Assembly: GCA_039944855.1 (NCBI GenBank)
Contig: JBDUXZ010000001.1
Coordinates: forward strand, 2,568-66,567
DNA: 64,000 nt
Source: Rhodothermales bacterium
GTDB taxonomy: Bacteria > Bacteroidota > Rhodothermia > Rhodothermales > JANQRZ01
Direction: 5' to 3'
Position 1 is the stretch's first letter; every line of letters starts with the position of its first letter. Under the pieces are notes generated by a model that saw only the letters and a list, made by a program, of their open reading frames with translations, did no database searches and was not told the origin of the DNA. A program made the translations under genes and the position numbers. Below, piece after piece: positions 3,890 through 47,731 of this stretch.

Positions 3890-6800
3890 TCACCGCACGA
3901 GGAGCACGCGGCGCGTTGCGGCGGCGGCGTCCGTGGAGAGGCGGACGAGGTAGGTCCCGCTCGGGAGCCCAGCCGCGTCCCAGCGGACCTCGTGGTGGCC
4001 GGCGGGCTGGAGCCCGCTCAGGAGACGGGCCACGCGGCGGCCGAGCACGTCGTAGACCGTCAGCTCTACATCCGCGGGCGCGGGGAGCGCGACGCCGAAC
4101 GTCGTCGCCTCGCGGAACGGGTTGGGGTAGGCCGCCTCCAGCGCGAAGGCGAGTGGGAGCATGGCATCACCTTCGGACGGCACGTCGACGCCGACGCCGA
4201 AGCGGCCCTCCGCCGCCGGGCCGCCGTTGTAAGCGGTGTCCACGGCGCGGACGCGCCATGTGTAGACGCCCTCGGGGAGCCCGCTCAGCGTCCATTCCGT
4301 CGCGGCGCGGATGGTGCCCGGCTCGGGCAGGCGGCGCGGCGTGGCGACGGGGACGCCGTCGCGGTAGAGCTCAAGGTCGTAGGTCAGCGCGGAGGCGGGC
4401 GTGCTGTCGTCCGTCGCCGGGTTCCACGCGAGCGTGACGGTGCCCGTCTCGTCGTCGACGGTCGCCTGCATCCCGGAAGGCCGGGTCGGCGCGGCGTTCG
4501 AGCCCGTAGCGTCGTAGCGGTAGAGGTGCATCTGCGCCTCGACGAGGCCGTTCCCGCCGGGCACCCAGTAGTCGCCCGCGATGAAGTAGTCGAGGTCGCC
4601 CTCGCCGTCGATGTCGAGCCAGGAGAACGTGCCGCCGCGCGTGCCGGACGAGCGGGGCGCGGGGAGGTCGTCGCCGGCGTCGGTGAACGTGCCGTTGTCG
4701 TTGACGTAGATCCGGGCGCGGCCTTCGATCTGCCCGGTGCCGGGGTTGTGCGTGCCGGTGAGGAGGATGTCGATGTCGCCGTCCGAGTCGTAGTCGGCCC
4801 ACGTCGCGGCGGTGAAGTCGAACCAGCCCTCGCACGGGATGCACTCGATGACGTCGAACGGGGTGAAAACGTCGGCGTCGTTCTCGTAGATGCGGAGGGC
4901 GCGGTGCGTGAACGTCCCGTCCTTCTCGCCGAGGTTGCCGGCGATGAGGAAGTCGTAGTCGCCGTCGTTATCGTAGTCGCCCCACTGCGCCTCGCCGTGC
5001 TCGATCGTGAGGTCGCCGAGCACGTTCTCGCCGACGAACACGCCGCCGCCGTCGTTGCGGTAGCGGCGGATGAAGCCGTTCGGGGTGAGCGGGGCGAGGT
5101 GGACGAGGAGGAGGTCGAGGTCACCATCGGCGTCATAGTCGGCCCAGAGGCTCTGCGCGTGACGGGTGGGGGCGAACGTCGAGTCGGTCTCGGTGAACGT
5201 GAACCCGCCCGCGCCGTCAGGGCCGTCATTGCGGAGGAGCGCCGTGCGGTGGCGGAACGAGCCGGAGTCGTAAACGGAGGGGAGGAGGAGGTCGGGGTCG
5301 CCGTCGTTGTCGTAGTCGGCGAGCGTGATCGACTGGAGGTCGAAGTCGGCCTGGTCGTTGTCCTCGTAGTAGCCCGGCAGGCCAGAATCGGTGGCGACGA
5401 GCGTGCCGCCGTCGTTCCGGTAGATCACCGTCTCGCCGTCGGTGCCGACGACGAGGTCCTGGTCGCCGTCCCCGTCGAGGTCGCCCCACGCGAGGTCGGA
5501 CGCGCCCGTCGTGAGGTCCCCGAGGGGCACGTCGATGTACTCGAAGTCCCACGCTTCGGGCGAGGCCTCGCCGTCGTTGCGGAGGAGCACGAGCCGCTCC
5601 ACCACGCTCTCGCCGTAGACGACGTAGAAGCCGAGCACGGCGATGTCGAGGTCGCCGTCGCCGTCGTAGTCGGCGGGGGCCGTTGTCGCCACCCAGAAGT
5701 CCTCGTCCTGGGGCGTCACGAAGAGCGGGTCGAGTGGGGTGACCTCGGTGAAGTCACCGAAGGTGCCCCCCGGGCCGGACTGGACGACGATGACCCGGCC
5801 GCCCTGGCCCGTCGCGCCGACGTCGTCGGTGACGGTCAGGCGGACGATGTAGGTGTCGGCCTCGACGAAGGTATGCGTGGGGTTCTGCTCCGTCGAGGTG
5901 GAGTCGGGCGTGCTATCCCCGAAGTCCCAGAACCAGTCGACGACGGTGCCGTCGGGATCGGTGCTGGTGTCGGTGAACGTGACGGTGAACCCCGTGGCTT
6001 CGAACTCGAAGGACGCCACGGGCGGCCGGTTGAGTGGGGGCGGGGGCGGGCCCGTGAAGTGCTCGATGGCGCCCTGCCACCCCACCACCCACGCGTCTCC
6101 CGCCGGCGTGGCGGCGATCGCCGAGAACGAACTGAGCGCTCCTTGCCCGATCTCGAGCACGGCCCAGGTCTGGCCGCCCGTGGCCGAGTAGTAAACAGTA
6201 TCGTCGTTTGTGCTGACCCACAGTTCGTCGGGGCCGAGGAGGTAGACGTCGGTGAGTTGGACGTCGGTATCGGCCGGGATCGGTAGGATGTCCCACGACA
6301 CGCCCCCGTCCTCGCTGCGCGCGGCGTAGCCGTACCAGCCCACGGCGTACCCTACGTTCTCATCGGCGAAGTCCATGTCGCGGATCTGCTGGCTGGTGCT
6401 CGTCGGGAGCTCGCCCTGCGTCCACGTCGCGCCGCCGTCATGGCTGTAGTAGTAGCGCCCGCTCGTGTTGGCGGCCCAGCCATGCGTGCCCTCGATATCC
6501 ACGGCGACGTACGCCCCTCCGAACCCCGGCACGGGCGTCCACGTCGCGCCGCCGTCGGTGGTGTGGAAGAGGGCCCGGCCGATGGCGCCCGACCCGATCA
6601 CCCACCCGTCGAGCTCCGACGTGAAGTGGACGTCGGAGGCGTCGAGGTTGGCAGGCGCAGCGGCGGCCGCGTTCCACGACGCGCCTCCGTCGGCGCTCTG
6701 GTAGACGAGCCCGTCCTCGTCGACGGTGGCGACGCGCTCGCTGTCGACGGCCTGGACGGCCACCAGGTCCAGCGATGTGAACGGCGCGACCTGCCGCCAC

Positions 6801-7996
6801 GGCGCGTCTCCCGTCTTGGTCAGTACAACTCCGTTATCCCCGACGGTGATCAGGCGGCCATCGGCGAAGCGGTCCACGTCGGCGAGGTGGGAGCCGGTGC
6901 CGCTGCTGATCTGCGTCCAACTGGCCCCGCCGTCGGTGGTCTTGATGACGAAGCCGTTCCCGTACCCGAAGTAGCCTGTCTGTGCATCGGCGAACGCGGG
7001 CCGGCCGCCGTTGAAGAAGGTCGGCCGGGGGCCGAGGGATGCGAACGACTGTGTCCACGTCTGCCCGGCGTCGGTAGAATAGTGCATGCTGCCCTGGAGG
7101 TCACTCGCAACGACGGCCGGCACGGCCGGCACGGCGAACCCACCGACGCCCTGCGGGATCACCTCGCCGAGGTCGGTCCACGACTGGCCGCCGTCGGCAG
7201 AGCGGAGGACGCGGTCGTCGTAGTTCTGGAACGGGCCGGTCCGTCCCCAGGCCAGCACCACGTCGGAGGTGACGGCCTGAAGCCGGGTACGGCCGAGGGC
7301 CGTAGTCCCGACGGCCGTCCACGTCTGGCCGCCGTCTACGGAGCGGAGGAACGCGTCTTCGGCGATGGCCACGGCGGTGGTGGCGTCGAGGAACGTGACG
7401 GCGCTCACGGTGTCCGCATAGACCTGCGAGAAGGTGTCCCCGCCGTCGGCCGTGCGGTAGAGGCCCGCTGTCGAGACCCCGAGCCCTGTCTGGCCGTCGG
7501 CGAAGTCGAAGGCGACGATCGCATGCGGGGCGTCCTCCCACGAGAGGCCCCCGTCCCGGCTGATCCATGCTTCGCCGTTGGTCGAGGCGAAGCCGAAGCT
7601 CGGCGAGTAGAACGCCATGAAGTAGGTCGAGCCCAGCACGGGGAGTTCCTCCCACGTCGTGCCGCCGTCGGTGGTCCGGTAGTTCCGGTTGCCGTAGGCC
7701 CAGCCGAGCTGGCTGTCCAGGAAGAAGACGCCGTGGAGGGGGTCGTGGAGGTTGAAGGGGACGTCCCGCTGCGTCCAGGTCGCGCCGCCGTCGGCCGATT
7801 CAAAGAGGGCGCCTCCGTCATCGAACGAGTCGTCCGAGGTGGCGAGGAACACGCGTTGTGGGGTGGGAGCCCCTACCCCGCGTACGTCCAGGGCGGTAGG
7901 GATCGGACTCTCCGTGGTCCACTGCGCGAGGGCGTGCGGCCCGAGGAATACGCTGAGGAGGAGAACGAGGGTGGAGGGGGCGTAGAGGTGGCGCAT
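3890..7996 (-). CDS. 1368-aa secreted multidomain protein: BNR/Asp-box beta-propellers + PKD + FG-GAP/VCBS repeats + Fn3 + T9SS CTD
   Basis: Signal peptide MRHLYAPSTLVLLLSVFLGPHALAQ. There are 13 SxDxGxTW-type Asp boxes (e.g. SADGGATWTQ, TTDGGTTWEE, SHDGGATWTQ). The PKD-like segment reads FTDTSTDPDGTVVDWFWDFGD. Seven DxDxDGxxD FG-GAP-like repeats are present (ADYDGDGDLDIAV, GDYDNDGDYDFLI and others). The C-terminus is a T9SS CTD (YPNPFREATTFGVALPAPADVELTVYDVLGRRV). Confidence 0.85.
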   Translation of the reverse strand: MRHLYAPSTLVLLLSVFLGPHALAQWTTESPIPTALDVRGVGAPTPQRVFLATSDDSFDDGGALFESADGGATWTQRDVPFNLHDPLHGVFFLDSQLGWAYGNRNYRTTDGGTTWEELPVLGSTYFMAFYSPSFGFASTNGEAWISRDGGLSWEDAPHAIVAFDFADGQTGLGVSTAGLYRTADGGDTFSQVYADTVSAVTFLDATTAVAIAEDAFLRSVDGGQTWTAVGTTALGRTRLQAVTSDVVLAWGRTGPFQNYDDRVLRSADGGQSWTDLGEVIPQGVGGFAVPAVPAVVASDLQGSMHYSTDAGQTWTQSFASLGPRPTFFNGGRPAFADAQTGYFGYGNGFVIKTTDGGASWTQISSGTGSHLADVDRFADGRLITVGDNGVVLTKTGDAPWRQVAPFTSLDLVAVQAVDSERVATVDEDGLVYQSADGGASWNAAAAAPANLDASDVHFTSELDGWVIGSGAIGRALFHTTDGGATWTPVPGFGGAYVAVDIEGTHGWAANTSGRYYYSHDGGATWTQGELPTSTSQQIRDMDFADENVGYAVGWYGYAARSEDGGVSWDILPIPADTDVQLTDVYLLGPDELWVSTNDDTVYYSATGGQTWAVLEIGQGALSSFSAIAATPAGDAWVVGWQGAIEHFTGPPPPPLNRPPVASFEFEATGFTVTFTDTSTDPDGTVVDWFWDFGDSTPDSTSTEQNPTHTFVEADTYIVRLTVTDDVGATGQGGRVIVVQSGPGGTFGDFTEVTPLDPLFVTPQDEDFWVATTAPADYDGDGDLDIAVLGFYVVYGESVVERLVLLRNDGEASPEAWDFEYIDVPLGDLTTGASDLAWGDLDGDGDQDLVVGTDGETVIYRNDGGTLVATDSGLPGYYEDNDQADFDLQSITLADYDNDGDPDLLLPSVYDSGSFRHRTALLRNDGPDGAGGFTFTETDSTFAPTRHAQSLWADYDADGDLDLLLVHLAPLTPNGFIRRYRNDGGGVFVGENVLGDLTIEHGEAQWGDYDNDGDYDFLIAGNLGEKDGTFTHRALRIYENDADVFTPFDVIECIPCEGWFDFTAATWADYDSDGDIDILLTGTHNPGTGQIEGRARIYVNDNGTFTDAGDDLPAPRSSGTRGGTFSWLDIDGEGDLDYFIAGDYWVPGGNGLVEAQMHLYRYDATGSNAAPTRPSGMQATVDDETGTVTLAWNPATDDSTPASALTYDLELYRDGVPVATPRRLPEPGTIRAATEWTLSGLPEGVYTWRVRAVDTAYNGGPAAEGRFGVGVDVPSEGDAMLPLAFALEAAYPNPFREATTFGVALPAPADVELTVYDVLGRRVARLLSGLQPAGHHEVRWDAAGLPSGTYLVRLSTDAAAATRRVLLVR

Positions 7997-17059: not shown

Positions 17060-17081
17060 GAGACGCATCATGCTGCGTCTC
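17060..17081. terminator. hairpin between convergent hpt and HD-domain genes
   Basis: GAGACGCA-TCATGC-TGCGTCTC lies in the 30-nt gap between the two stop codons and overlaps the TAG of the minus-strand gene. Confidence 0.45.
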
Positions 17082-18439
17082 TACGGTTCGGTGGGAAACG
17101 CTTCGGCGAGGTCGAGGGTGACCTGTTTCGGGGCGCAGACGTAGTGCCGCACGACGGCCCCGGTGAGGGCTCCGACGGCGGCCACATCGGTCGCGCGCGA
17201 TAGCTCGCGGACGCGCCCGTCACGCTCCAAGATCGAGATGGAATCATCGGCGCGCTGGTACGCGTCGAGCGAGGAGCGGCCGACGGTGAGGTACGCACCG
17301 GCGTCGGCCACGGCATCGGACGGGGTGGAGAGGCCGGAGGTGACGAGCCACTCGGCGACGCGCTCGCGCCACAGGGCGAGGTCCTCGGGCGTCGGCTCGG
17401 CGGGGAGGTACGTCGTGCGGAAGAGGTCGCGGTCGACGAAGCGGCGGGCGAGGTCGGCGAGGATCGGGTCGGCGGCGTCGGTCCAGCGGCTCAGGCTGTA
17501 GAGGAGGTCGGTGTCGTCGAGCCGGCAGAAGGCGTCGAGCACGGCGGGTTCGTCGATCTCGGACGCGGTGACGCGGCGGCGGAGGAAGAACAGCAGGGCG
17601 GGGGAGGAGGCGAGCACGGCCGGGTCGCTGTCGGCGCAGCACCGCCGCGCGCGGGAGAACGCGGAGCGGAGGAGGTGGTCGGCCGCGATGACGGTCTTGT
17701 GGAGGTAGACCTGCCAGTACATCAGCCGGCGCGAGAGGATGTAGCTCTCGACGGCGTACGCGCCCTTCGCCTCGATCACGATGTCGGCGCCAGCCCCGCC
17801 TTCGAGCGGGTGGACGCGCATCGTTTTGATGATCCGATCCACGCCGATCACGCCCTCGGCGACGCCGGTGTAGAACGAGTCGCGGCGGAGGTAGTCGAGC
17901 CGGTCCATGTCGAGCTGCGACGAGAGGAGGCTGTGGAAAAACGGCCGGTCGTACGCGCTGTCGAAGATGGTGAGGGCGAGGTCGAGCGCGCCGTCGAAGC
18001 GCTCGTTGAGCCGTTGGATCAGCACGCGGCTCATCCGCTCGTGCCGGAACGGTCCGTTGGCGTCGGGCCCGATGAGGTCGGTTTCGAGCGTATGCGAGAA
18101 GGGGCCGTGGCCGACGTCGTGGAGGAGGACGGCGACGAGCGCCGCTTCGTGCTCGGCCTCGGAGATCGGCGTGCCCTTCTCGGCGAGGCTGAGGAGCGCC
18201 TGCTGCATCAGCGCCGTCGCCCCGAGGGCGTGTTGGAACCGTGTGTGCTCGGCACCGGGGAAGACGAGGTGGCCGAGGCCGAGCTGCCGGATGCGGCGGA
18301 GCCGCTGGAACTCGGGCGTCTCGATGAGCGGGAGCAGCAGCCGCTTGGGGACGGAGATGAACCCGTGGACGGGGTCGGAGAAGATTTTAAAGCGGCTCGC
18401 CACAGGAGGAGTCGGAGGGGGAACGTAGAGACGCAGCAC
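17081..18439 (-). CDS. HD-domain phosphohydrolase (dNTP triphosphohydrolase/SAMHD1-like, COG1078-type)
   Basis: Motifs FQHALGA and VAVLLHDVGHGPFSH are present. The N-terminus FSDPVHGFISV is typical of this family. The start codon is GTG. Confidence 0.8.
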   Translation of the reverse strand: MLRLYVPPPTPPVASRFKIFSDPVHGFISVPKRLLLPLIETPEFQRLRRIRQLGLGHLVFPGAEHTRFQHALGATALMQQALLSLAEKGTPISEAEHEAALVAVLLHDVGHGPFSHTLETDLIGPDANGPFRHERMSRVLIQRLNERFDGALDLALTIFDSAYDRPFFHSLLSSQLDMDRLDYLRRDSFYTGVAEGVIGVDRIIKTMRVHPLEGGAGADIVIEAKGAYAVESYILSRRLMYWQVYLHKTVIAADHLLRSAFSRARRCCADSDPAVLASSPALLFFLRRRVTASEIDEPAVLDAFCRLDDTDLLYSLSRWTDAADPILADLARRFVDRDLFRTTYLPAEPTPEDLALWRERVAEWLVTSGLSTPSDAVADAGAYLTVGRSSLDAYQRADDSISILERDGRVRELSRATDVAAVGALTGAVVRHYVCAPKQVTLDLAEAFPTEP

Positions 18440-18526
18440 GCTGCGTCAGTCGAACGGGACAGAGACCGGCGGGATCCGGCGGCAGCGTTGAATCGAGGGC
18501 CTGTTCCGGCGTATCGTGCGCTCCCG

Positions 18527-19912
18527 ATGCCCGACTTCGCGCCCATACCCTGCTGCATCGAAGCGCCCCCGGCGTTCGTGCCGAAGGCGCGCTGGGCACT
18601 CGACGCGCTGCTTGCGCCGCTCGGTCTTGCGCCGGTGTGGACGGAGCGCGATGCGCTCGACGCCGGGCTCTACTACGGTCCGACGCCGGACGGCCTGCCC
18701 GCCGACGTGCTCGCCCTCCGCCTGCATCCCGCGACGACGGACTACTTCGACAGCGGTGAAGTCTACGACCCCAACGGCGCGAGCAAGCTGGCATGGGACG
18801 GCGAGCGCTGGCCCGTCCTGTTTCCGTACGAGCAGCCCGCGCCGGCCGACCTCATCGCCTCCGCCTTCTTCTGGCTTTCGGGCTGGCAGGAGGTCACGAC
18901 GCGCGAGCGCGACGAGCACGGCCGCTTCCCGTATCGCGCCTCGCTCCAGGCCACGCTCGGCTGCGCGGCGCAGCCCGTCGTAGACGTGTACCGCGAAGTG
19001 CTCGCAGACAAGTTGGCGGCGCTCGGCGTCCCGGTTCGGCGGCAGTTGTGGGAGGGGAAGGCGTGGGCCGTGGCGCTCTCGCACGACGTGGACCTGCTGC
19101 GGAAGCGGCGGCTCGGGACCGTCGCCCGCTCGTTCGTCCGCCGGGATGGGCAGCGCGGCGCAGCGCTCCGGCAGGCCGCTCTCGCCCCCGATCCCCGGCG
19201 TGAGAGCCTCCGCCGTATGGCCGAGGCCGAGCAGGAGCGCGGGGTCGGCGCGACGTACTTCTTCAAGACGGCGGCGCGCGGGCCGTGGGACGTTCCGTAT
19301 GCCCACGACAGCCCGACCCTCCGCCGCCTCGTCGCAGGCCTCGAAGCGGACGGGTTCGAGATCGGGCTGCACCCGAGCTACTTCGGGCACGACCACCCCG
19401 GCCACCTCGCCGAGGAGCGGGACCGGCTCGCCCGGCTGCTCGGTGCGCCGCCCGTCTCCGTCCGCCAGCACTTCCTCCGCTTCGACGAGGCGACGCCCCG
19501 GCTGCAGCACGCCGCCGGCTTCCGCATCGACTCGACGCTCGGGTTCTCTCGACACGAAGGCTTCCGGCGCGGGACGTGCTTCCCGTTTCGCCTCTTCGAC
19601 ATGCGGATGAACGCGCCGCTCGATCTGTGGGAAGTCCCGCTCGTGGCGATGGACACGACGCTGTTCATGCACCGCGGACTCGACGGGAGCGAGGCGGAGC
19701 GCGTGCTCGGCGACCTCTTCGCCGCGTGCCGCCGCGTCGGCGGGTGCTGCACCGTCCTCTGGCACAACACGACCTACGACGAGCTAGACTATCCAGGGCA
19801 CGCCGCCGTGTTCGAGCGGACGCTTGACCGTGCGATCGCCGAGGGTGCCGCCGTGCTCAGCGTCCGTGACGCCGTCGCAGCCGTGGAGCCGGCCCGGGCG
19901 GGGCGAGGGTAG
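18527..19912 (+). CDS. polysaccharide deacetylase-like protein with extra N-terminal domain
   Basis: The C-terminal half has deacetylase-like motifs (ALSHDVDLL, EIGLHPSY, VRQHFLRF). The track ORF from 17675 is an antisense over-extension, and the first plausible start is the ATG at 18527. Confidence 0.6.
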   Translation: MPDFAPIPCCIEAPPAFVPKARWALDALLAPLGLAPVWTERDALDAGLYYGPTPDGLPADVLALRLHPATTDYFDSGEVYDPNGASKLAWDGERWPVLFPYEQPAPADLIASAFFWLSGWQEVTTRERDEHGRFPYRASLQATLGCAAQPVVDVYREVLADKLAALGVPVRRQLWEGKAWAVALSHDVDLLRKRRLGTVARSFVRRDGQRGAALRQAALAPDPRRESLRRMAEAEQERGVGATYFFKTAARGPWDVPYAHDSPTLRRLVAGLEADGFEIGLHPSYFGHDHPGHLAEERDRLARLLGAPPVSVRQHFLRFDEATPRLQHAAGFRIDSTLGFSRHEGFRRGTCFPFRLFDMRMNAPLDLWEVPLVAMDTTLFMHRGLDGSEAERVLGDLFAACRRVGGCCTVLWHNTTYDELDYPGHAAVFERTLDRAIAEGAAVLSVRDAVAAVEPARAGRG

Positions 19913-23000: not shown

Positions 23001-25651
23001 CCCGTTGGCAGCACTCGATCGACGCGGGCGAGGCGTTCGAGATGGAGTTCCCCCTCCGCGCGGCCGACGGGTCGTTCCGGTGGTTCCTCACCCGCATCCG
23101 CCCGCTCCGCGACGACGACGGCGAGATCACCCGGTGGGTCGGCACGAACACTGACATCGACGAGCACCGCCGCCTCCTCGCCGAGCGCGACGAGGCCCTC
23201 GCCCGCGCCGAGACCAGCGAGGCCCGCTACCGCTTCCTCGGCGAGACCCTCCGCCAGCAAGTCTGGACGGCCGAGCCCGACGGCCAGCTCGACTACGTGA
23301 ACAGCTACGTCGTCGAGTTCTTCGGTCGGTCGGCGGAGGAGGTCATCGGCGCGGGGTGGCAAGCCGTCGTTCACCCCGAGGACCTCCCGCTCGTCGCCGA
23401 GCGCTGGGCGCACTCCGTCAGCACCGGCGAGCCCTACGAGGTCGAGTTCCGCCTCCGCCGGCACGACGGTGCGTACCGCTGGCACCTCGCCCGGGCGAAC
23501 GCCCACGTCGATGACGGTGAGGTGGTGAAGTGGTTCGGCGCGAACACCGACATCCAAGAGAAGAAGGAGGCCGAGGAGGTCCTCACCGAGACGAACCGCG
23601 TGCTCGAACGGCGCGTGGCTGAGCGGACGCAGGCGCTCGAGGGGTTCTCCGAAGACCTCAAGGCGCTCCACCGCATCACCTCGGCCGAGCACGACCGGAC
23701 CGAGGACTTCTTCCACGACTACCTCCGCGCCGGGTGCGACATCTTCGAGATGCCCATCGGCATCCTCAGCGAGACGCCGCTCCTCGCGACGGGCGAGCGG
23801 GTGTACCGCGTCCACGCCGCCGAGTCGGCCGTAGCGGGGATCGAGGCGGGGATGGAGATCCCGCTCCGCGACGCGTTCTGCGACGCCGTCGTAGGGACCG
23901 AGCAGACGATGAGCTACGGCGACACGGCCGAGGTCGAAGCGCTGGCCTGTCACTCCGCTTACACGGAGCGCGGGCTCCGCTCGTTCATCGGCACGCCGGT
24001 GTGGGTCGACGGCGAGCTGTTCGGGACGCTGAACTTCATCTCGCCGGAGCCGCGGCCGAGCGGGTTTGCGCCGCACGAGCACGAACTCGTCGAGGTCATC
24101 GCCGAGCTCGTCGGCCGCCTCCTCAGCCAGCAGCGGGCCGAGCGGGCCCGCGCCGAGACCGACGCCCGCTACCGCTCCGTCGTCCGCACGATCGACGAGG
24201 GGCTGATCCTCGTCGACGCCGAGGGGCGCGTCCTGATGAGCAACCCGGCGGCGACGCAGTTCCTCGGGCTCGAAGAGGGGACGCACGACTCCTTGACCGG
24301 GAGCGGGCGTTATACGATTGTCCGGCCTGACGGCAGCCCGTTTCCCGAAGCGGAACTGCCCGAGCGCGAAGTGCTGCACACCGGCCAGGCCGTCAGCGGC
24401 GTCATCCAGGGCATCGTCAGCCCCCGTGGCGGGACGCGGTGGTACTCCGTCAACGCCCGCGCCGCCGAGCACGACGACGAGGGCGCCGTCCGCACCGTCG
24501 TCGTGTCGTTCACGGATGTGACCGAGCAGCGGCAGGCCGAGACGGAGCTGCGCGAGAGCGAGGCCCAACTCCAGAACGCCCAGCAGATCGCCCACATCGG
24601 CAGCTGGAAGTGGCACGTCGCCGACGACGAGATCCAGTGGTCGGACGAGCTCTTCCGCATCTTCGGCCTCGTCCCCGACGCCTTCGATCCGTCGTTCGAG
24701 AGCTACCTCAACTACATCCACCCCGAAGACCGGGACACAATCCGCGAGGGGGTGGCGGGTGCGCTGGAGCGGGGCGGGGGCTTCGAGGTGAACCACCGCA
24801 TCGTCCAGCCCGACGGGACGGTCCGCTACGTCCTCGGGCTCGGCGAGGCCGTACTCGACGACCGCGGCGAGATCGTCGCGCTCCAGGGCACGGCGCAGGA
24901 CGTGACGCAGCAGCACGAGGCCGAGCGCGCGATGCAGCGCTACGCCGACGACCTCGAGGAGCGGAACGCCGAGCTCGAGCAGTTCGCCTACGTCGCCAGC
25001 CACGACTTGCAGGAGCCGCTGCGGATGGTGTCGAGCTTCCTCCAGCTCCTCCAGCGCCGCTACGCCGACCAGCTCGACGAGACCGCCGACGAGTACATCG
25101 CCTACGCCGTCGATGGGGCGAAGCGGATGCAGGTGCTGATCCAGGACCTGCTCGCGTACTCCCGCGTCGGCACGCGGGGCAAGGCGTTCCGGCCCGTCGA
25201 CATGAACCGCACGGTCGAGACGATTCTCACCGACCTCGGCCCGGCGCTCGACGACGTCGACGCCGACGTGCGGGTCGAGCCGCTCCCGACCGTATCGGCC
25301 GACGAGACGCAGATGCGGCAGCTCCTCCAGAACCTCGTCGCGAACGCGGTGAAGTTCCGCGGCGAGGCCACGCCCGAGGTCCGCGTCTCCGCTGCGCGGA
25401 TCCGCGAGGACGACCGCCCGCTGTGGCGCTTCGCCGTGGCCGACAACGGCATCGGCATTGAGGCGCACCACGCCGACCGCGTGTTCCAGATCTTCCAGCG
25501 GCTCCACACCCGCGACGAGTACGAGGGGACGGGGATCGGGCTGGCGATGTGCAAGAAGATCGTCGAGCGGCACGGCGGCCGGATCTGGTTCGAGTCCGAG
25601 CCCGGCGCGGGCACCACCTTCTACTTCACGATCCCCGACCAGCGCACGTAG
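20045..25651 (+). CDS. cytoplasmic multi-sensor histidine kinase (11 PAS/PAC + GAF + HisKA + HATPase_c), 1868 aa
   Basis: Eleven PAC-type domain ends are visible (e.g. DVTERRQAE, DITEDVRTEQ, DVTERKQAE, DITEEREAAE, DVTEQRQAE). A GAF-like block lies at about nt 23670-24125. The HisKA H-box is [12 protein letters not shown]. The HATPase motifs are NLVANAVKF, DNGIGI and [18 protein letters not shown]. No TM segment is seen. Confidence 0.9.
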   Translation: MADSTPPSTSDALPNGAALPDDLALFLDFLDQFSVGVSIYHLDDPDDPGSLRLVHANDAASRAVGFDVKAEIGKTFNEALPQALETDIPATYAEVALTGERRDLGEVEYGDERVQRGTFRVEAVPLPGRHVGVIFEEVTQRKATEDRLRLLTAATENARDSILITGPEIDEPGPVIVYANSAFTRLTGYELHEVVGKTPRLLQGPDTDRTVIDRLRARLEAGETFSGETINYRKDGTPFVMSWDIAPIHGGSGEITHWVATQRDVTERRQAEERLRQSEAELRSIAEATFEGVVLSEGGRIVLVNETFAEMMGYAPDELVGMNPAEEGYITVAAESHAEVQARIEAGFEGAYEAVLRRKDGSTFPAEIRARMIRFGGRDVRATAVRDVTERVATLEATRRQALRFRGIFDSAFQHIFLLRPDGTLVEANRTALDFAGVAAEEVVGEPIWEARWWGLNPRTRERLAEAVERAAEGDLVRYVVDVSGQGDRVAALDLSVKPVADEHGRVELLIAEGRDITEDVRTEQELRRLQETQRRLALEEARYRLAARATNDAIWDWDLTTDEVKWNPAVADLFGWTDAVDGTDAAWWKEHIHPEDRERVVVAIHDVIEGGGETWRSEYRFRRADGTYADVYDRGYMERDDEGEPRRMVGAMQDVTERKQAEVAVRTALRHAEEAEQRKTEILESIGDAFFSLDTDWHFTYVNEQAGPLLQRDPDDLVGKNVWEAFPEALDSAFGQHYQRAVETGEVVAFDAYYPPLERHFAVRAYPYPGGLSVYFSDVTAQKEAEQALREVEERFRLATDAAQIGTWDYNPISGALEWDARCKAIFGIAPGVQADYDVFLERLHPDDHAATNAAVEGALDPAGSGMYDAVYRVFQSDGDVRWIHATGKGFFEGEGDERHAVRLIGTVRDITEEREAAEAVRRSEAQLLSLVDNLPELAWSARPDGHIEFYNHRWYEYTGTTPEQMEGWGWKAVHHPDHLDDVVARWQHSIDAGEAFEMEFPLRAADGSFRWFLTRIRPLRDDDGEITRWVGTNTDIDEHRRLLAERDEALARAETSEARYRFLGETLRQQVWTAEPDGQLDYVNSYVVEFFGRSAEEVIGAGWQAVVHPEDLPLVAERWAHSVSTGEPYEVEFRLRRHDGAYRWHLARANAHVDDGEVVKWFGANTDIQEKKEAEEVLTETNRVLERRVAERTQALEGFSEDLKALHRITSAEHDRTEDFFHDYLRAGCDIFEMPIGILSETPLLATGERVYRVHAAESAVAGIEAGMEIPLRDAFCDAVVGTEQTMSYGDTAEVEALACHSAYTERGLRSFIGTPVWVDGELFGTLNFISPEPRPSGFAPHEHELVEVIAELVGRLLSQQRAERARAETDARYRSVVRTIDEGLILVDAEGRVLMSNPAATQFLGLEEGTHDSLTGSGRYTIVRPDGSPFPEAELPEREVLHTGQAVSGVIQGIVSPRGGTRWYSVNARAAEHDDEGAVRTVVVSFTDVTEQRQAETELRESEAQLQNAQQIAHIGSWKWHVADDEIQWSDELFRIFGLVPDAFDPSFESYLNYIHPEDRDTIREGVAGALERGGGFEVNHRIVQPDGTVRYVLGLGEAVLDDRGEIVALQGTAQDVTQQHEAERAMQRYADDLEERNAELEQFAYVASHDLQEPLRMVSSFLQLLQRRYADQLDETADEYIAYAVDGAKRMQVLIQDLLAYSRVGTRGKAFRPVDMNRTVETILTDLGPALDDVDADVRVEPLPTVSADETQMRQLLQNLVANAVKFRGEATPEVRVSAARIREDDRPLWRFAVADNGIGIEAHHADRVFQIFQRLHTRDEYEGTGIGLAMCKKIVERHGGRIWFESEPGAGTTFYFTIPDQRT

Positions 25652-25684: not shown

Positions 25685-26986
25685 GTGACCGCTACCCTGC
25701 CCATAAACCTCCTCCTCGTCGCCGCCGACGTGTTCGGCTGGCTCGCCGACAGCTCGCTGATGCCCCACGGCTACTGCCTCCGCTGGGACCCCGCGCTCGT
25801 CAGCCTCCACGTCGGCGCCGACACGGCGATCGCGCTCTCGTACTACTCGATCCCGGCCGGGCTCTTCTACTTCGTGAAGAAGCGCGACGACATCGCCTAC
25901 TCGTGGATCTTCGTGCTATTCGGCATCTTCATCCTCGCGTGCGGGACGACGCACCTCATGGAGATCTGGACGCTGTGGCAGGCGAAGTACGGGCTCGAAG
26001 CCGTCGTCAAAGTGGTGACGGCCGTGGCGTCGGTCGTGACGGCGGTGATGCTGTGGCGGCTGCTCCCGGCGGCGATCGCGCTGCCGTCGCCCGAGCAGCT
26101 CCGCGTGGCGAATGCGCAGCTCGAAGACGCGAACGCGCAGCTCGAAGCGGCCGTCGCCAAGCTCGAAGAGGCGAACGCGCGGCTCGAGCGCGAGGTGGTC
26201 GAGCGACGCCGCGCCGAGGCCGCGTTGGAAACGACGACGGTCAAACTCCAGCGTAGCAACGCCGAGCTCGAGCACTTCGCCTCCGTCGCCAGCCACGACC
26301 TCCAGGAGCCGCTGCGGATGGTGTCGAGCTTCCTCCAGCTCCTCCAGCGCCGCTATGCCGACCAGCTCGACGAGACCGCCGACGAGTACATCGAGTACGC
26401 CGTCGATGGGGCGAAGCGGATGCAGGTGCTGATCCAGAACCTGCTCGCCTATTCCCGCCTCGGGACGCGTGCCGAGCCGTTCGAATCGGTCGACACCGAA
26501 GCCGTCGTGCGCGACGTTGCCGACGACCTTTCCGTCGCGATCGAGGAACACGGCGCCTCGCTCACGGTGGACGACCTGCCCACCGTTCAAGCTGACCCGA
26601 CCCAACTCCGGCAGGTGTTCCAGAACCTCATCGCGAACGCGCTGAAGTTCCGCGGCGAGACGGCCCCTGCGGTCCGCGTCTCGGCCGTGCACACCGAGCA
26701 CGTCCTCGCCGACGACGCCTCGGCGGAGGGCTGGCGCTTCGCTGTGGCCGACAACGGCATCGGCATCCCCGCCGAGCACGCCGAGCGGATCTTTCGCATC
26801 TTCCAGCGGCTCCACACCCGCGACGAGTACGAGGGGACGGGGATCGGGCTGGCGATGTGCAAGAAGATCGTCGAGCGCCACGGCGGCCGGATCTGGTTCG
26901 AGTCCGAGCCCGGCGCGGGCACCACCTTTTATTTCACGCTTCCACTCCGTCCTGCACCCATTCAACCCGACCATGCTGATGGTTAA
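25685..26986 (+). CDS. membrane histidine kinase with ETR1-like (ethylene-binding-domain-like) N-terminus
   Basis: Three N-terminal TM helices show [14 protein letters not shown]...[18 protein letters not shown], which parallels Arabidopsis ETR1 AYFSIPLELIYFVKK...FGAFIVLCGATHLINLWT (recalled from memory). These are followed by a heptad coiled coil, an H-box ([10 protein letters not shown]) and an HATPase domain. Confidence 0.85.
26108..26191 (+). repeat. four in-frame 21-nt tandem repeats encoding heptads ([28 protein letters not shown])
   Basis: The repeat GCGAAYGCGCAGCTCGAAGNN is read directly from the sequence. It lies between the TM domain and the H-box of the kinase. Confidence 0.8.
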
Positions 26987-44211: not shown

Positions 44212-45126
44212 CTACTTCCGCCGCGCGATCAGCAGGACGCTGCCGACGATGAGCATGGCTCCGGCGAGGCTCTGGAAGTCGGGCACGGTGCCGAAGACGA
44301 GGGCGCCCCACACGAACGCGAAAACGACCTGGAGGTAGCCGACGGAAATCGCCCGGCCCGCTTTTTCGAGGTGGAGCCCGCGCGTCAAGCAGAGCTGCCC
44401 GACGAGCGTCGAGACGCCGGCGCCGAGGAGCCACAGCCATGCCCAGCCGGTCGGCATCACCCAGTTCCCTGCGAAGGGGAGCGCGCCGACGACGCCGATC
44501 CACGAGAGGTAGAAGATGATGACGTCCGGCGCGTCCGTCGCACGCAGCTTGCGGACGATGGTGTACACGAGCCCCGAGAGCATCGACGCCGCGACGACGG
44601 CCGCTACGGCCAATCCGTCGAGCGCGTCGAGTGAGCCGAAGAGGAACGACGGCTCGGAGATGAGCACGACGCCGACGAGGCTCACGGCCATCCCGACAAG
44701 CACGAGCCCCGCCGTACGCTCGCGGAGGACGAACGCCGCCGAGAGCGCGGTCCAGATCGGGGCCATGTAGAACAGCGCCGTCGCGTCGCCGAGCGGGATG
44801 CGGGGGATCGCGAAGTAGAACAGGCTCAGCGCGGCGACGCCGATCACGCCGCGCGCGAACAGTAGCGCCCGGTTGTGGCCGAGCGGGGCGAGGCCGGCGC
44901 GGCGAACGAGGACGTAGATCATCCCTGCCATCAGGACCGAGCGCGCGAACACGATCTCCATCGTCGGGATCGTCTGCCCGGCCAGCTTGACGAACAGCGT
45001 CATCAGGCTGAAGGCCAGCGCGGACCCTGCCATGTAGCGGAGGCCGAGCGGAATGCGGAGGAAGAAGCCGGGGCGAGGCGTAGCGGTAGCGGGCACGGAC
45101 AGGAGATCTCGGGCGAGCGTTGGCAA
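44212..45126 (-). CDS. DMT superfamily transporter (EamA-type, 10 TM)
   Basis: Two EamA-like halves are rich in Gly/Ala/Leu TM helices (ALAFSLMTLFVKLAG...; ...GALVFGTVPDFQSLAGAMLIVGSVLLIARRK). Confidence 0.8.
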   Translation of the reverse strand: MPTLARDLLSVPATATPRPGFFLRIPLGLRYMAGSALAFSLMTLFVKLAGQTIPTMEIVFARSVLMAGMIYVLVRRAGLAPLGHNRALLFARGVIGVAALSLFYFAIPRIPLGDATALFYMAPIWTALSAAFVLRERTAGLVLVGMAVSLVGVVLISEPSFLFGSLDALDGLAVAAVVAASMLSGLVYTIVRKLRATDAPDVIIFYLSWIGVVGALPFAGNWVMPTGWAWLWLLGAGVSTLVGQLCLTRGLHLEKAGRAISVGYLQVVFAFVWGALVFGTVPDFQSLAGAMLIVGSVLLIARRK

Positions 45127-45280
45127 CCGGATTCCCAGCGGCGAGTTCGCCGGCAGGTGTCATTTACGCCCCTCTTCACGCGTCGAGCGAGGGCAAGCTC
45201 AACTGTCTGATGCGGTTGGCTTTGACTCGGGGGCCGCGTACTTTTGGGCCCCGCCGTCTCTCCGCCATCGCACTGCCCGC

Positions 45281-47731
45281 ATGCGCCGTCTCTCCGCTTC
45301 CCTCTGTTTCCTCGTCGTCACGCTCGCCGGCTCTTCTGTCCTCGCGCAGTCCGTAGCGCCCCGCTACAGCGAAGTCCGCATCGCCCTCACGGATCGGGCC
45401 GACCTCCGCGCGATCGCCGAGCGCGTCCCCGGCCTCGGACACGTCGATCTGCAGAAAGAGGGCGGCCGGTTCGTGGCCGTCACGGTGCTAAGCGAGGTAG
45501 ACCTCGCCGACCTCGCCGCGAGCACGTTTCCGTTCGAGGTGTCGGTGCCGGATGTCGCAGCGGCGTACGCTGCCCGTCCGCCGGCGACCGAGGCTGATCG
45601 CGCCGCCGGCCTCGCAGCGAGTCGCGTCGGTGGCGGGTTCGGCTACGGATCGATGGGCGGCTACTACACGTTCGACGAAGTCCTCGGGAAGCTCGACGAG
45701 CTGGCGGCGGACTACCCCGGCCTCATCTCCGAGCGCGTCTCCATCGGGCAGTCGTGGGAGGGGCGCGACCTGTGGATGGTCAAGATCTCCAACGCCCCGA
45801 CCGTCGACGAAGACGAGCCGGAGGTGCTCTACACCGGCCTCCACCACGCCCGCGAGCCGCAGGGCATGACCTCGGTGCTCTATTACATGTACTACCTGCT
45901 GGAGAACTACGGCAGCGACCCCGAGGTGACGTACCTCGTCGACAACCGCGAGCTCTACTTCGTGCCCGTGCTCAATCCCGACGGCTACGTGTACAACGAA
46001 ACGACGAGCCCGAACGGCGGCGGCTTCTGGCGGAAGAACCGCCGGGACAACGGCGGGAACAGCTTCGGCGTCGACCTCAACCGGAACTACGCGTACGAGT
46101 GGGGGCGCGACAACACCGGGTCGAGCCCGAGCCCGGGCGGCGAGACGTACCGCGGGCCGGGGCCGTTCTCCGAGCCCGAGACGCAGGCCATCCGGGACTT
46201 CGTGGAGAGCCGGGAGATCGTGGCCGCGTTCAACTACCACTCGTACAGCAACGTCCTGCTGCACCCGTGGGGCTACGAGGAAGGCGTGTACACCCCCGAC
46301 CAAGACGTCTTCACCACCATCTCCGGCGACATGACGCGGGTCAACGGTTACGAGTTCGGGCAGGCCGCTGACGTGCTCTACCCCGCGAATGGGGACTCCG
46401 ACGACTGGTACTACGGCGAGCAGACGACGAAGGGGAAAGCCTACGCGTGGACGCCCGAGGTAGGGAGGTCGGGCGACGGGTTCTGGCCCGACGAGGACCG
46501 CATCGTCCCGCTCGCCGAGGAGAACCGCGTGGCGAATCTCAGCCTCGCGTGGTTCGCGGGCGCTTACCCCCGCGTGCAGGCCTTTGAGATCGCTGAGACG
46601 CACGCCGCGCCGAACGGCTACGTCGACCCCGGCGAGCCGGCGGCGCTCACCCTCACGCTTCAGAATCTCGGGCTGGCAGGCGTTTCCGACGCACGGGCGC
46701 GGATCGTCAGCACGAACCCCGCGCTCCCCATCGAATCGGGCGCGCTGAGTGCGCCGTTCTCGCTCGGCCCCGAAGGCATGGTGGAGCTCGAAGGGCTCGC
46801 GTTCACGCTCGGGCTCGACGCCGCCGTCGGCTTGCAGGACGGGCTGGCGGTCGAGATGACGTTCGATGGGACGACGCTCGTTCAGCCGCTTGGACCGATC
46901 TCGGTGGGCACGCCGGTCGCGGTGTTCGAGGACGCGGCGGGCTCGATGGCAGCGTGGGATACGGGCACGGGGTGGGGCCTCGCGAGCACGAGCACGTCGC
47001 CGCCGACCTCGTTCGCCGACAGCCCGACGGGGTCGTATGGGAATAATGTCTCGAACGCGCTGACGCTAGCCGAGCCGCTGGACCTCAGCGACGGCGTGAG
47101 CCCGCAGCTACGGTTCAGCGCGCGCTGGGACATCGAGTCCAACTATGACTTCGTGCAGGTCCGTGCTTCGACGAACGGCACGAACTGGACGCCGCTGGCG
47201 GGCCGCTACACCCGGCCCGGCTCCGGCTCCGGCGATCAGACTTCCGGCGAGCCCGGCTACGACGGCACACGGACGCAGTGGGCCGAGGAACTGATGGACC
47301 TGAGCGCCTACGAAGGCGAACCGGAGGTCTACCTCCAGTTCCGGTTGCAATCCGACGGCTCCGTCACCGGCGACGGGTTCTACCTCGACGACCTCGCGGT
47401 GGAGACGTTCTCGAACGGGAGCACGGTGGCGAACGAGACAGGCACGGCTCCAACCCGGCCCGCGCTCTACGATAACTACCCGAACCCGTTCACCAACTCG
47501 ACGCTCATCCCGTTCGACCTCCCCGAGGCGGGTCCAGTGACGCTCACGGTGTACGATCTGCTCGGCCAGCGCGTCCGCGTGCTCACCGATGGAGACCGTG
47601 CTGCAGGTCCGCACAGCGTGAGGTGGGACGGTCGGGACGCCTCGGGTCAGGCCGCGGCGAGCGGGGTTTACGTCTGCACGCTCCGTGCCGCCGGGGCCGT
47701 GTCGACACGCAAGCTCCTCGTGGTCCGGTAG
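45281..47731 (+). CDS. secreted M14 zinc carboxypeptidase with extra C-terminal domains and T9SS CTD
   Basis: Signal peptide MRRLSASLCFLVVTLAGSSVLAQS. The M14 motifs are LYTGLHHAREPQG, NPDGY and FNYHSYSN. The T9SS CTD reads YPNPFTNSTLIPFDLPEAGPVTLTVYDLLGQRVRVL. Confidence 0.85.
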   Translation: MRRLSASLCFLVVTLAGSSVLAQSVAPRYSEVRIALTDRADLRAIAERVPGLGHVDLQKEGGRFVAVTVLSEVDLADLAASTFPFEVSVPDVAAAYAARPPATEADRAAGLAASRVGGGFGYGSMGGYYTFDEVLGKLDELAADYPGLISERVSIGQSWEGRDLWMVKISNAPTVDEDEPEVLYTGLHHAREPQGMTSVLYYMYYLLENYGSDPEVTYLVDNRELYFVPVLNPDGYVYNETTSPNGGGFWRKNRRDNGGNSFGVDLNRNYAYEWGRDNTGSSPSPGGETYRGPGPFSEPETQAIRDFVESREIVAAFNYHSYSNVLLHPWGYEEGVYTPDQDVFTTISGDMTRVNGYEFGQAADVLYPANGDSDDWYYGEQTTKGKAYAWTPEVGRSGDGFWPDEDRIVPLAEENRVANLSLAWFAGAYPRVQAFEIAETHAAPNGYVDPGEPAALTLTLQNLGLAGVSDARARIVSTNPALPIESGALSAPFSLGPEGMVELEGLAFTLGLDAAVGLQDGLAVEMTFDGTTLVQPLGPISVGTPVAVFEDAAGSMAAWDTGTGWGLASTSTSPPTSFADSPTGSYGNNVSNALTLAEPLDLSDGVSPQLRFSARWDIESNYDFVQVRASTNGTNWTPLAGRYTRPGSGSGDQTSGEPGYDGTRTQWAEELMDLSAYEGEPEVYLQFRLQSDGSVTGDGFYLDDLAVETFSNGSTVANETGTAPTRPALYDNYPNPFTNSTLIPFDLPEAGPVTLTVYDLLGQRVRVLTDGDRAAGPHSVRWDGRDASGQAAASGVYVCTLRAAGAVSTRKLLVVR

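Follow-up and report, generated by a model that had tools for sequence, protein, structure and literature searches.

The ethylene-binding domain (EBD) is best known from plants, where Arabidopsis ETR1 and ERS1 (plant subfamily 1) signal via CTR1 and EIN2, largely independently of histidine kinase activity (PMC11819568). Many proteobacteria and cyanobacteria also have EBD proteins, whose outputs vary widely (PMC7700396). SynEtr1 (slr1212/UirS/PixA) of Synechocystis PCC 6803 is a bifunctional protein with an additional cyanobacteriochrome GAF photosensor, and AzoEtr1 of Azospirillum brasilense shows saturable 14C-ethylene binding and controls biofilm formation (PMC11819568). Here we describe an EBD histidine kinase of 433 amino acids, encoded from a GTG start in a 64,000-nucleotide stretch of DNA (the window) from a Rhodothermales-like bacterium, where it stands between a large PAS/GAF histidine kinase and a single-domain receiver. 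An earlier reading, made from the sequence alone (the sequence-only reading), had proposed a kinase with an ETR1-type sensor, and we recovered exactly this open reading frame on the plus strand. It had also stated that few bacterial EBDs have been studied functionally. Two bacterial members, SynEtr1 and AzoEtr1, have been tested; AzoEtr1, which is not cyanobacterial, is already a proven binder (PMC11819568).

The window protein resembles AzoEtr1 in its N-terminal ETR1_N domain, its seven binding residues and accompanying lysine, its PHGxC motif, its HisKA/HATPase_c transmitter, its overlapping downstream gene for a single-domain receiver and its non-cyanobacterial host. It differs in that AzoEtr1 (525 amino acids) carries a PAS domain between EBD and HisKA, whereas the window EBD is joined to HisKA directly via a coiled coil. 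The H-box reads AHEMSQPL in AzoEtr1 and SHDLQEPLR, of the phytochrome type, in the window protein, and the AzoEtr1 host, unlike the Rhodothermales-like host of the window, is a plant-associated alphaproteobacterium, in which the receptor has no tandem partner kinase. Where SynEtr1 has its photosensor, a second input to the window system may come from the neighbouring PAS/GAF kinase. Like ETR1 and ERS1, the window protein has a homologous three-helix EBD, 36–38% identical to theirs, in which the eight-residue set from D25 to K91 is kept, followed by a histidine kinase; unlike them, it has neither a GAF domain nor a fused receiver, and its N-terminus carries PHGxCxxW where plant receptors have a Cys4/Cys6 pair. 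Its transmitter core and the 149-amino-acid receiver are of the type found in Cph1/Rcp1-type phytochrome pairs, but its input is an EBD and not a bilin-binding PAS-GAF-PHY module.

We found that the sensor matches the Pfam family ETR1_N (PF25487) with E = 8e-38 and 129 bits (cut-off 27), residues 38–133 aligning with profile positions 2–97 of 97; AzoEtr1, whose ethylene binding has been shown by experiment, reaches 132 bits with this model. Because the match covers the full profile at this E value, a similarity limited to generic transmembrane (TM) composition is ruled out, and the invariance of the functional residues, described next, likewise leads us to reject chance resemblance. We aligned the window protein by MAFFT with AzoEtr1, with EBD proteins of Acaryochloris and Pseudanabaena, which as cyanobacterial rows stood in for SynEtr1, and with six N-terminal sequences of plant ethylene receptors found in the protein database (alignment A1). 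AzoEtr1 was taken from the replicon of A. brasilense Sp7 (L081:3468-5045). The recovered sequence begins with codons that agree with the cloning primer in the literature, and it has D35, C75, H79 and K98 at their published positions. In A1, the window EBD is 50% identical to that of AzoEtr1 (54.7% by local tblastn), 42–50% identical to the cyanobacterial domains and 28–38% identical to the plant domains. The three segments that the sequence-only reading had set beside ETR1 are present in the translation and line up with the corresponding plant receptor segments.

In AtETR1, the D25A substitution abolishes ethylene binding (PMC10266040), Y32 is essential for binding (PMC8879215), and so are I35, P36, I62, C65 and H69 (PMC6586836); from these three papers we assembled a list of seven essential residues. 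Lys91 is the partner of Asp25 in ETR1 signal output (PMC10266040). All seven essential residues are kept in the window protein, as D46, Y53, I56, P57, I83, C86 and H90, respectively. Their columns are invariant in A1, as are others that include F79, F82 and G87, and the lysine, here K109, is kept in at least 90% of the rows. The formal alignment for which the sequence-only reading had called, made here with domains from plants, cyanobacteria and Azospirillum, comes out in its favour. The offset between the window protein and AzoEtr1 D35, C75, H79 and K98 is constant at 11 residues, in agreement with the published mapping of ETR1 D25, C65, H69 and K91. Similarly, the Cys-x3-His copper pair that had been noted earlier is encoded by TGC at 25940–25942 (C86) and CAC at 25952–25954 (H90), the codons of the predicted Cu(I) ligands.

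Among 382 sampled bacterial homologues, 352 keep all seven residues. The orthologues of the window kinase are 77–83% identical to it, and the ratio of nonsynonymous to synonymous substitution rates (dN/dS) is 0.18 for the gene overall; the EBD is its most constrained segment, with a dN/dS of 0.13 (measured against the relative L084). [quoted passage not shown]

An AlphaFold2 model run with 36 homologues (mean predicted local distance difference test score, pLDDT, of 85) places membrane helices at residues 36–66 (TM1), 73–98 (TM2) and 102–131 (TM3), and hydropathy peaks back TM2 and TM3. D46, Y53, I56 and P57 fall in TM1, I83, C86 and H90 in TM2, and K109 in TM3. After a four-residue break at a conserved LPSP, the model continues as a single, uninterrupted helix of 88 residues (136–223) that carries His204. 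The linker portion of this helix consists of nine uninterrupted heptads (AxLxxAN) running into helix 1 of the dimerization and histidine phosphotransfer (DHp) domain, and Pfam finds both HisKA and HATPase_c behind it, as the sequence-only reading had described. Pfam matched no GAF domain in the protein, which sets it apart from the plant EBD-GAF-kinase layout. Among close orthologues, linker length differs by exactly one heptad; the register is therefore preserved, as a register-sensitive coiled coil would tolerate. The extra heptad of the window protein lies at about 26126–26146 (residues 148–154) relative to the orthologues P0346–P0348, and the length is equal in P0349 and P0122.

The catalytic core is intact. 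HisKA is matched with E = 1.6e-12, and H204 is invariant in the 36 homologues, as are N318, D356/G358/G360 and G384/G386/G388, so that the N, G1 and G2 boxes are intact. The best relatives of the kinase core in the PDB are the stand-alone histidine kinase core 8f71 and then bacteriophytochrome kinases. When the PDB was searched with the sensor sequence, there was no match even at E = 10; the PDB holds no experimental structure of any ethylene-binding domain. The features of the locus are collected in Table 1.

Table 1. Features of the EBD kinase locus, with positions counted from the first nucleotide of the window.
Feature	Position	Strand	Description or basis
PAS/GAF histidine kinase, 1,868 amino acids	20045..25651	+	About nine PAS + GAF, HisKA, HATPase_c; Pfam
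Candidate gene-conversion block 1 (DHp region)	24965..25202 paired with 26258-26495	+	238-nt direct repeat, 91% identical
Candidate gene-conversion block 2 (C-terminal catalytic region)	25424..25635 paired with 26732-26943	+	212-nt direct repeat, 91% identical
EBD histidine kinase	25685..26986	+	Transmembrane sensor of predicted ethylene-binding type, coiled-coil linker, HisKA, HATPase_c
Motif P27-H28-G29-Y-C31-L-R-W34	25763..25786	+	Just before TM1, predicted periplasmic face
Ethylene-binding domain proper, residues 38-133	25796..26083	+	Pfam ETR1_N, alignment, AlphaFold2 helices
Heptad coiled-coil linker, residues 136-195	26090..26269	+	A-x-L-x-x-A-N repeats, continuous with DHp helix 1
HisKA (DHp), residues 196-260	26270..26464	+	Phospho-acceptor His204, SHDLQEPLR box; Pfam HisKA
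HATPase_c, residues 304-422	26594..26950	+	Pfam E = 3.6e-32; N box N318, DxGxG 356-360, GxGxG 384-388
Single-domain response regulator, 149 amino acids	26973..27422	+	Pfam Response_reg E = 1e-19; start overlaps kinase gene end by 14 nt
REC-X, 490 amino acids	27616..29088	+	N-terminal receiver, Pfam Response_reg E = 7e-17; syntenic in relatives

Together, these features make it probable that the gene product is a dimeric inner-membrane sensor histidine kinase with a copper(I)-dependent ethylene-binding input of the ETR1/SynEtr1/AzoEtr1 family. By analogy with these receptors, Cu(I) would be held by Cys86 and His90 of TM2 and positioned by Asp46 of TM1, and ethylene would bind the copper within the helix bundle. 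The change on binding would then pass through an Asp46–Lys109 polar bridge to TM3, and from there through the coiled coil to the DHp domain, where it would lower autophosphorylation; ethylene would in this way act as an inverse agonist, and less phosphate would reach the 149-amino-acid receiver and perhaps REC-X, a larger receiver protein encoded downstream. We expect ethylene to lower receiver phosphorylation because, in published work, it inhibits the histidine kinase activity of AtETR1, the evidence for SynEtr1 points indirectly the same way, and the same has been predicted for AzoEtr1.

Several points weigh against this interpretation. Ethylene binding is predicted, for the window protein and for its Rhodothermota homologues alike, and which way the signal runs and which protein accepts the phosphate are both assigned by analogy. 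What the AlphaFold2 model contributes is helix spans and pLDDT; the copper site was assigned from the alignment, and its geometry is not part of the model evidence. The AtETR1 numbering was read from a ruler sequence that was cross-checked in two ways: its numbering fits the published positions, and plant receptors in the database are 83–91% identical to it. One ETR1 residue in the stretch, and only one, is not kept: Glu38, which is Gly59 in the window protein. This substitution is probably tolerated, because AzoEtr1, a validated ethylene binder, has alanine at the same position. No copper chaperone, P-type ATPase or other copper-handling gene was found near the locus, and we accordingly rejected the idea of a dedicated copper-delivery gene in the cluster. 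As for transcription, two runs that bear the same species label as runs containing the locus, X24 (RNA) and X23 (DNA), had zero reads on it, and the metatranscriptome X9 yielded spurious fragments of at most 80 nucleotides only.

The locus itself is present in four runs of 2023 (among the set X1–X4 and X21–X24) that share one coded organism label, and this label may denote a host or bulk sample, not the bacterium itself. Runs of 2026 with the same label (40–62 Gb of DNA and 27 Gb of RNA) had no locus reads in the 5–6% sampled.

The ligand of the site could in principle be something other than ethylene. The Cys/His copper ligands, together with a second conserved His/Cys pair in the PHGxC motif (see below), would also suit a Cu(I)-binding domain whose role is copper/silver or redox (thiol) sensing, reporting metal availability or the oxidative state of the membrane, and an old hypothesis holds that ethylene perception derived from a copper-handling mechanism (reviewed in PMC10452086). 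We regard such a function as quite improbable, however, as Y53, I56, P57 and I83 are invariant too, and their ETR1 equivalents are needed for ethylene but, unlike C65 and H69, are not linked to copper binding (PMC6586836). Moreover, both tested bacterial members, SynEtr1 and AzoEtr1, bind ethylene (PMC6682694, PMC11819568), and copper-homeostasis genes were not found in the cluster. It is improbable as well that the Cu(I) site senses another small pi-ligand of the habitat (an alkene or alkyne, isoprene, CO or NO) with ethylene merely cross-reacting, given that the pocket has the same residues as in proven ethylene receptors and that the sensor is 50–55% identical to AzoEtr1. What favours another ligand of this kind is that the Cu(I) site of ETR1 also accepts other olefins and 1-methylcyclopropene, and that related sequences come from soil, mat, sediment, salt-marsh and marine metagenomes, settings in which ethylene sources are uncertain.

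Another alternative is that the TM module has lost ligand sensing and is a mere membrane anchor or dimerization device, leaving the kinase constitutive or controlled via its neighbours. Ligand binding by the window protein is, after all, predicted, and its transmitter appears to be a recent copy of that of the neighbouring kinase. We nevertheless consider this alternative highly improbable, for an anchor would have no need of the ligand and copper residues, all of which are kept, and the EBD, with its dN/dS of 0.13, is under stronger constraint than any other part of the gene.

A further element of the sensor deserves attention. The motif P-H-G-x-C-x-x-W (residues 27–34) is 97–100% conserved in the approximately 380 bacterial EBD homologues sampled, its His/Cys pair as strongly as the copper ligands Cys86 and His90. 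It finds no alignment in plant receptors, and it lies outside Pfam ETR1_N, which begins at residue 38. The AlphaFold2 model leaves the region non-helical with low pLDDT, and a literature search for an HGxC motif returned unrelated papers only. A few natural variants without the His and Cys exist, such as P0390, which has PRGHG. In A1, the single Cys31 aligns with plant Cys4 and may serve a disulfide-linked dimer of the kind expected in this family; cyanobacterial receptors likewise have a single N-terminal Cys, which has been noted as a possible disulfide (PMC6682694). We tentatively raise another idea, doubtful as it is: bacterial EBDs may hold a fourth functional element, the PHGxCxxW loop, that plant-based and Pfam models leave out. 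Rather than just forming a dimer disulfide, this loop could capture Cu(I) in the periplasm and hand it over to the intramembrane site, or it could supply an extra ligand or a redox gate.

Upstream of the loop, AlphaFold2 gives the window protein an extra hydrophobic N-terminal helix at residues 5–22 (25697–25750; pLDDT 64–75). Most homologues have only 8–12 residues before the loop, and both the start codon of the window protein and the status of this helix as a fourth TM segment are uncertain.

The comparison with relatives also suggests how the gene arose. In three Rhodothermales metagenome-assembled genomes (MAGs), L001 (chromosome-level), L002 and L019, the kinase core directly before the receiver is of the PAS-kinase type, 80–86% identical to the core of the window PAS kinase, and no EBD is present at the locus. 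Gene content thus marks the EBD kinase as a lineage-specific insertion: an older cluster of PAS kinase and receiver gained it in the lineage to which the window, L084 and L086 belong. The kinase core of the inserted gene is 69–74% identical to the neighbouring PAS-kinase core and 69–73% identical to other Rhodothermales PAS-kinase cores, as against at most about 59% identity, over the aligned kinase parts, to other EBD kinases in the database.

The resemblance between the two adjacent kinase genes is uneven. Within the two direct repeats listed in Table 1, DNA identity rises to 95–98% at 26276–26425 (block 1) and to 98–100% at 26801–26920 (block 2), third codon positions included, whereas the segment between the blocks is about 50% identical, which is the background level. 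Such a mosaic of near-identical blocks around a segment of about 50% identity indicates gene conversion. The two adjacent cores of L086 share 83% identity, more than either shares with its own window orthologue. The short-read contigs of run X1 break at the conversion blocks. The simplest reading of these data is that the transmitter of the EBD kinase was copied from the neighbouring 1,868-amino-acid kinase and has been kept alike by gene conversion; the gene would have originated by tandem duplication of the transmitter, followed by fusion to an EBD and continuing gene conversion. The G+C content at third codon positions is 0.96 in the EBD segment, matching the neighbouring genes and indicating native codon usage, and recent horizontal transfer of this segment, which we also considered, finds no support.

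DHp helix 1 sets partner specificity in two-component systems. Because gene conversion keeps the DHp helices of the two kinases near-identical, the pair probably address the same receiver, so that the EBD kinase would bring ethylene as an added signal into a pathway that predates it. The receiver in question is the single-domain protein that the sequence-only reading had correctly placed in the next gene. Its best PDB matches, RcpA (4e-45) and Rcp1 (2e-43), make it a receiver of the Rcp1/RcpA phytochrome-partner type; it is 85–98% conserved and syntenic in relatives, and it is likely the cognate partner of the EBD kinase.

REC-X could be a second acceptor or relay. Its middle is of low complexity and rich in Pro and Ala, and its C-terminal half gave no Pfam or PDB match; this half shows weak but consistent matches to histidine kinase models (MtrB 3e-8, EpsF 1e-5) and may be a degenerate kinase-like output. 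In the window, a gap of 33 nucleotides separates the PAS/GAF kinase gene from the EBD kinase gene, and one of 193 nucleotides follows the receiver gene before REC-X. L084 and L085 have the four cluster genes in identical order; in L084 there is a 4-nucleotide overlap between the two kinase genes, and the PAS/GAF kinase is conserved at 1,881 amino acids. The order is the same in L086, where gene calling splits both the PAS-kinase region and the REC-X region into several genes. We found no second EBD copy within the window, and a promoter and terminator scan returned nothing.

The surroundings of the cluster bear on the nature of the host. The window has a G+C content of about 69%, and its flanking housekeeping genes encode MutL, TilS, a phosphoribosyltransferase-domain protein, fructose-1,6-bisphosphatase (FBPase), GpsA and topoisomerase/gyrase-type subunits. 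The genes for the receiver, REC-X, a DUF2064 protein and FBPase are syntenic with Rhodothermales MAGs, to which the receiver is 85–89% and FBPase 88–90% identical. Because the flanks, at 85–90% identity, are syntenic with these MAGs, and because two proteins with type IX secretion system (T9SS) sorting domains are encoded in the window, the host is not a cyanobacterium, in keeping with the sequence-only reading, and we rejected a cyanobacterial origin of the window. The Rhodothermales belong to the phylum Rhodothermota of the Fibrobacteres–Chlorobi–Bacteroidetes (FCB) group.

The two T9SS proteins are large and secreted: a BNR/PKD/FG-GAP protein of 1,368 amino acids (3890–7996, minus strand) and an M14 carboxypeptidase with a MAM-like domain (45053–47731, plus strand), each with C-terminal sorting domain sequence. 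Such T9SS-tailed proteins are useful as a taxonomic marker of the FCB group. Elsewhere in the window, the longest open reading frame of a DUF7033 protein (17675–19912, plus strand, 745 amino acids) overlaps an HD-domain gene (17081–18439, minus strand); its start probably lies much further downstream, because the gene is called at only 365–440 amino acids in relatives.

An exhaustive HMMER search with residues 1–140, clustered at 50% identity, returned 8,316 EBD clusters at E <= 1e-3 and 6,020 at E <= 1e-10, with the EBD nearly always at the extreme N-terminus. The sequence-only reading had called EBDs sporadic outside cyanobacteria, a view that does not survive a family of this size, which moreover is curated in Pfam. 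In a full-length search, the minimal ETR1_N-HisKA-HATPase_c layout (about 370–445 amino acids) recurred in many proteins, among them examples in the cyanobacterium Argonema and a Myxococcota MAG, and EBD kinases with an inserted PAS or GAF domain occur in Burkholderia, Paraburkholderia, Scytonema, Verrucomicrobia and Calditrichia. A scan of genome contigs, which was dominated by the kinase core, showed an EBD in none of 80 loci and so gives taxonomy and synteny but no EBD census. Neither the domain nor the architecture is new, because this layout recurs widely and surveys already report bacterial EBD proteins.

The window kinase is thus sound but unsurprising: it belongs to a large known family with experimental precedent outside the cyanobacteria, and current understanding is not overturned. 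The new points are the lineage-specific insertion, the copying of the transmitter with gene conversion, and the near-invariant PHGxCxxW motif outside the Pfam model. The finding would extend ethylene-receptor-type sensing to a Rhodothermales-like bacterium, of the phylum Rhodothermota, where surveys speak of cyanobacteria and proteobacteria. It also suggests how a sensor can join an existing pathway, with the transmitter of a neighbour being duplicated and fused to an EBD while the partner-recognition helix is kept identical by gene conversion. The 433-amino-acid protein, in which one continuous helix joins EBD and kinase, lends itself as a minimal system to biochemical work and cryo-electron microscopy. 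For the role proposed above for the PHGxCxxW loop, this sensor kinase without extra domains would be a convenient test system, and also a candidate for solving the structure of an ethylene-binding domain by experiment for the first time.

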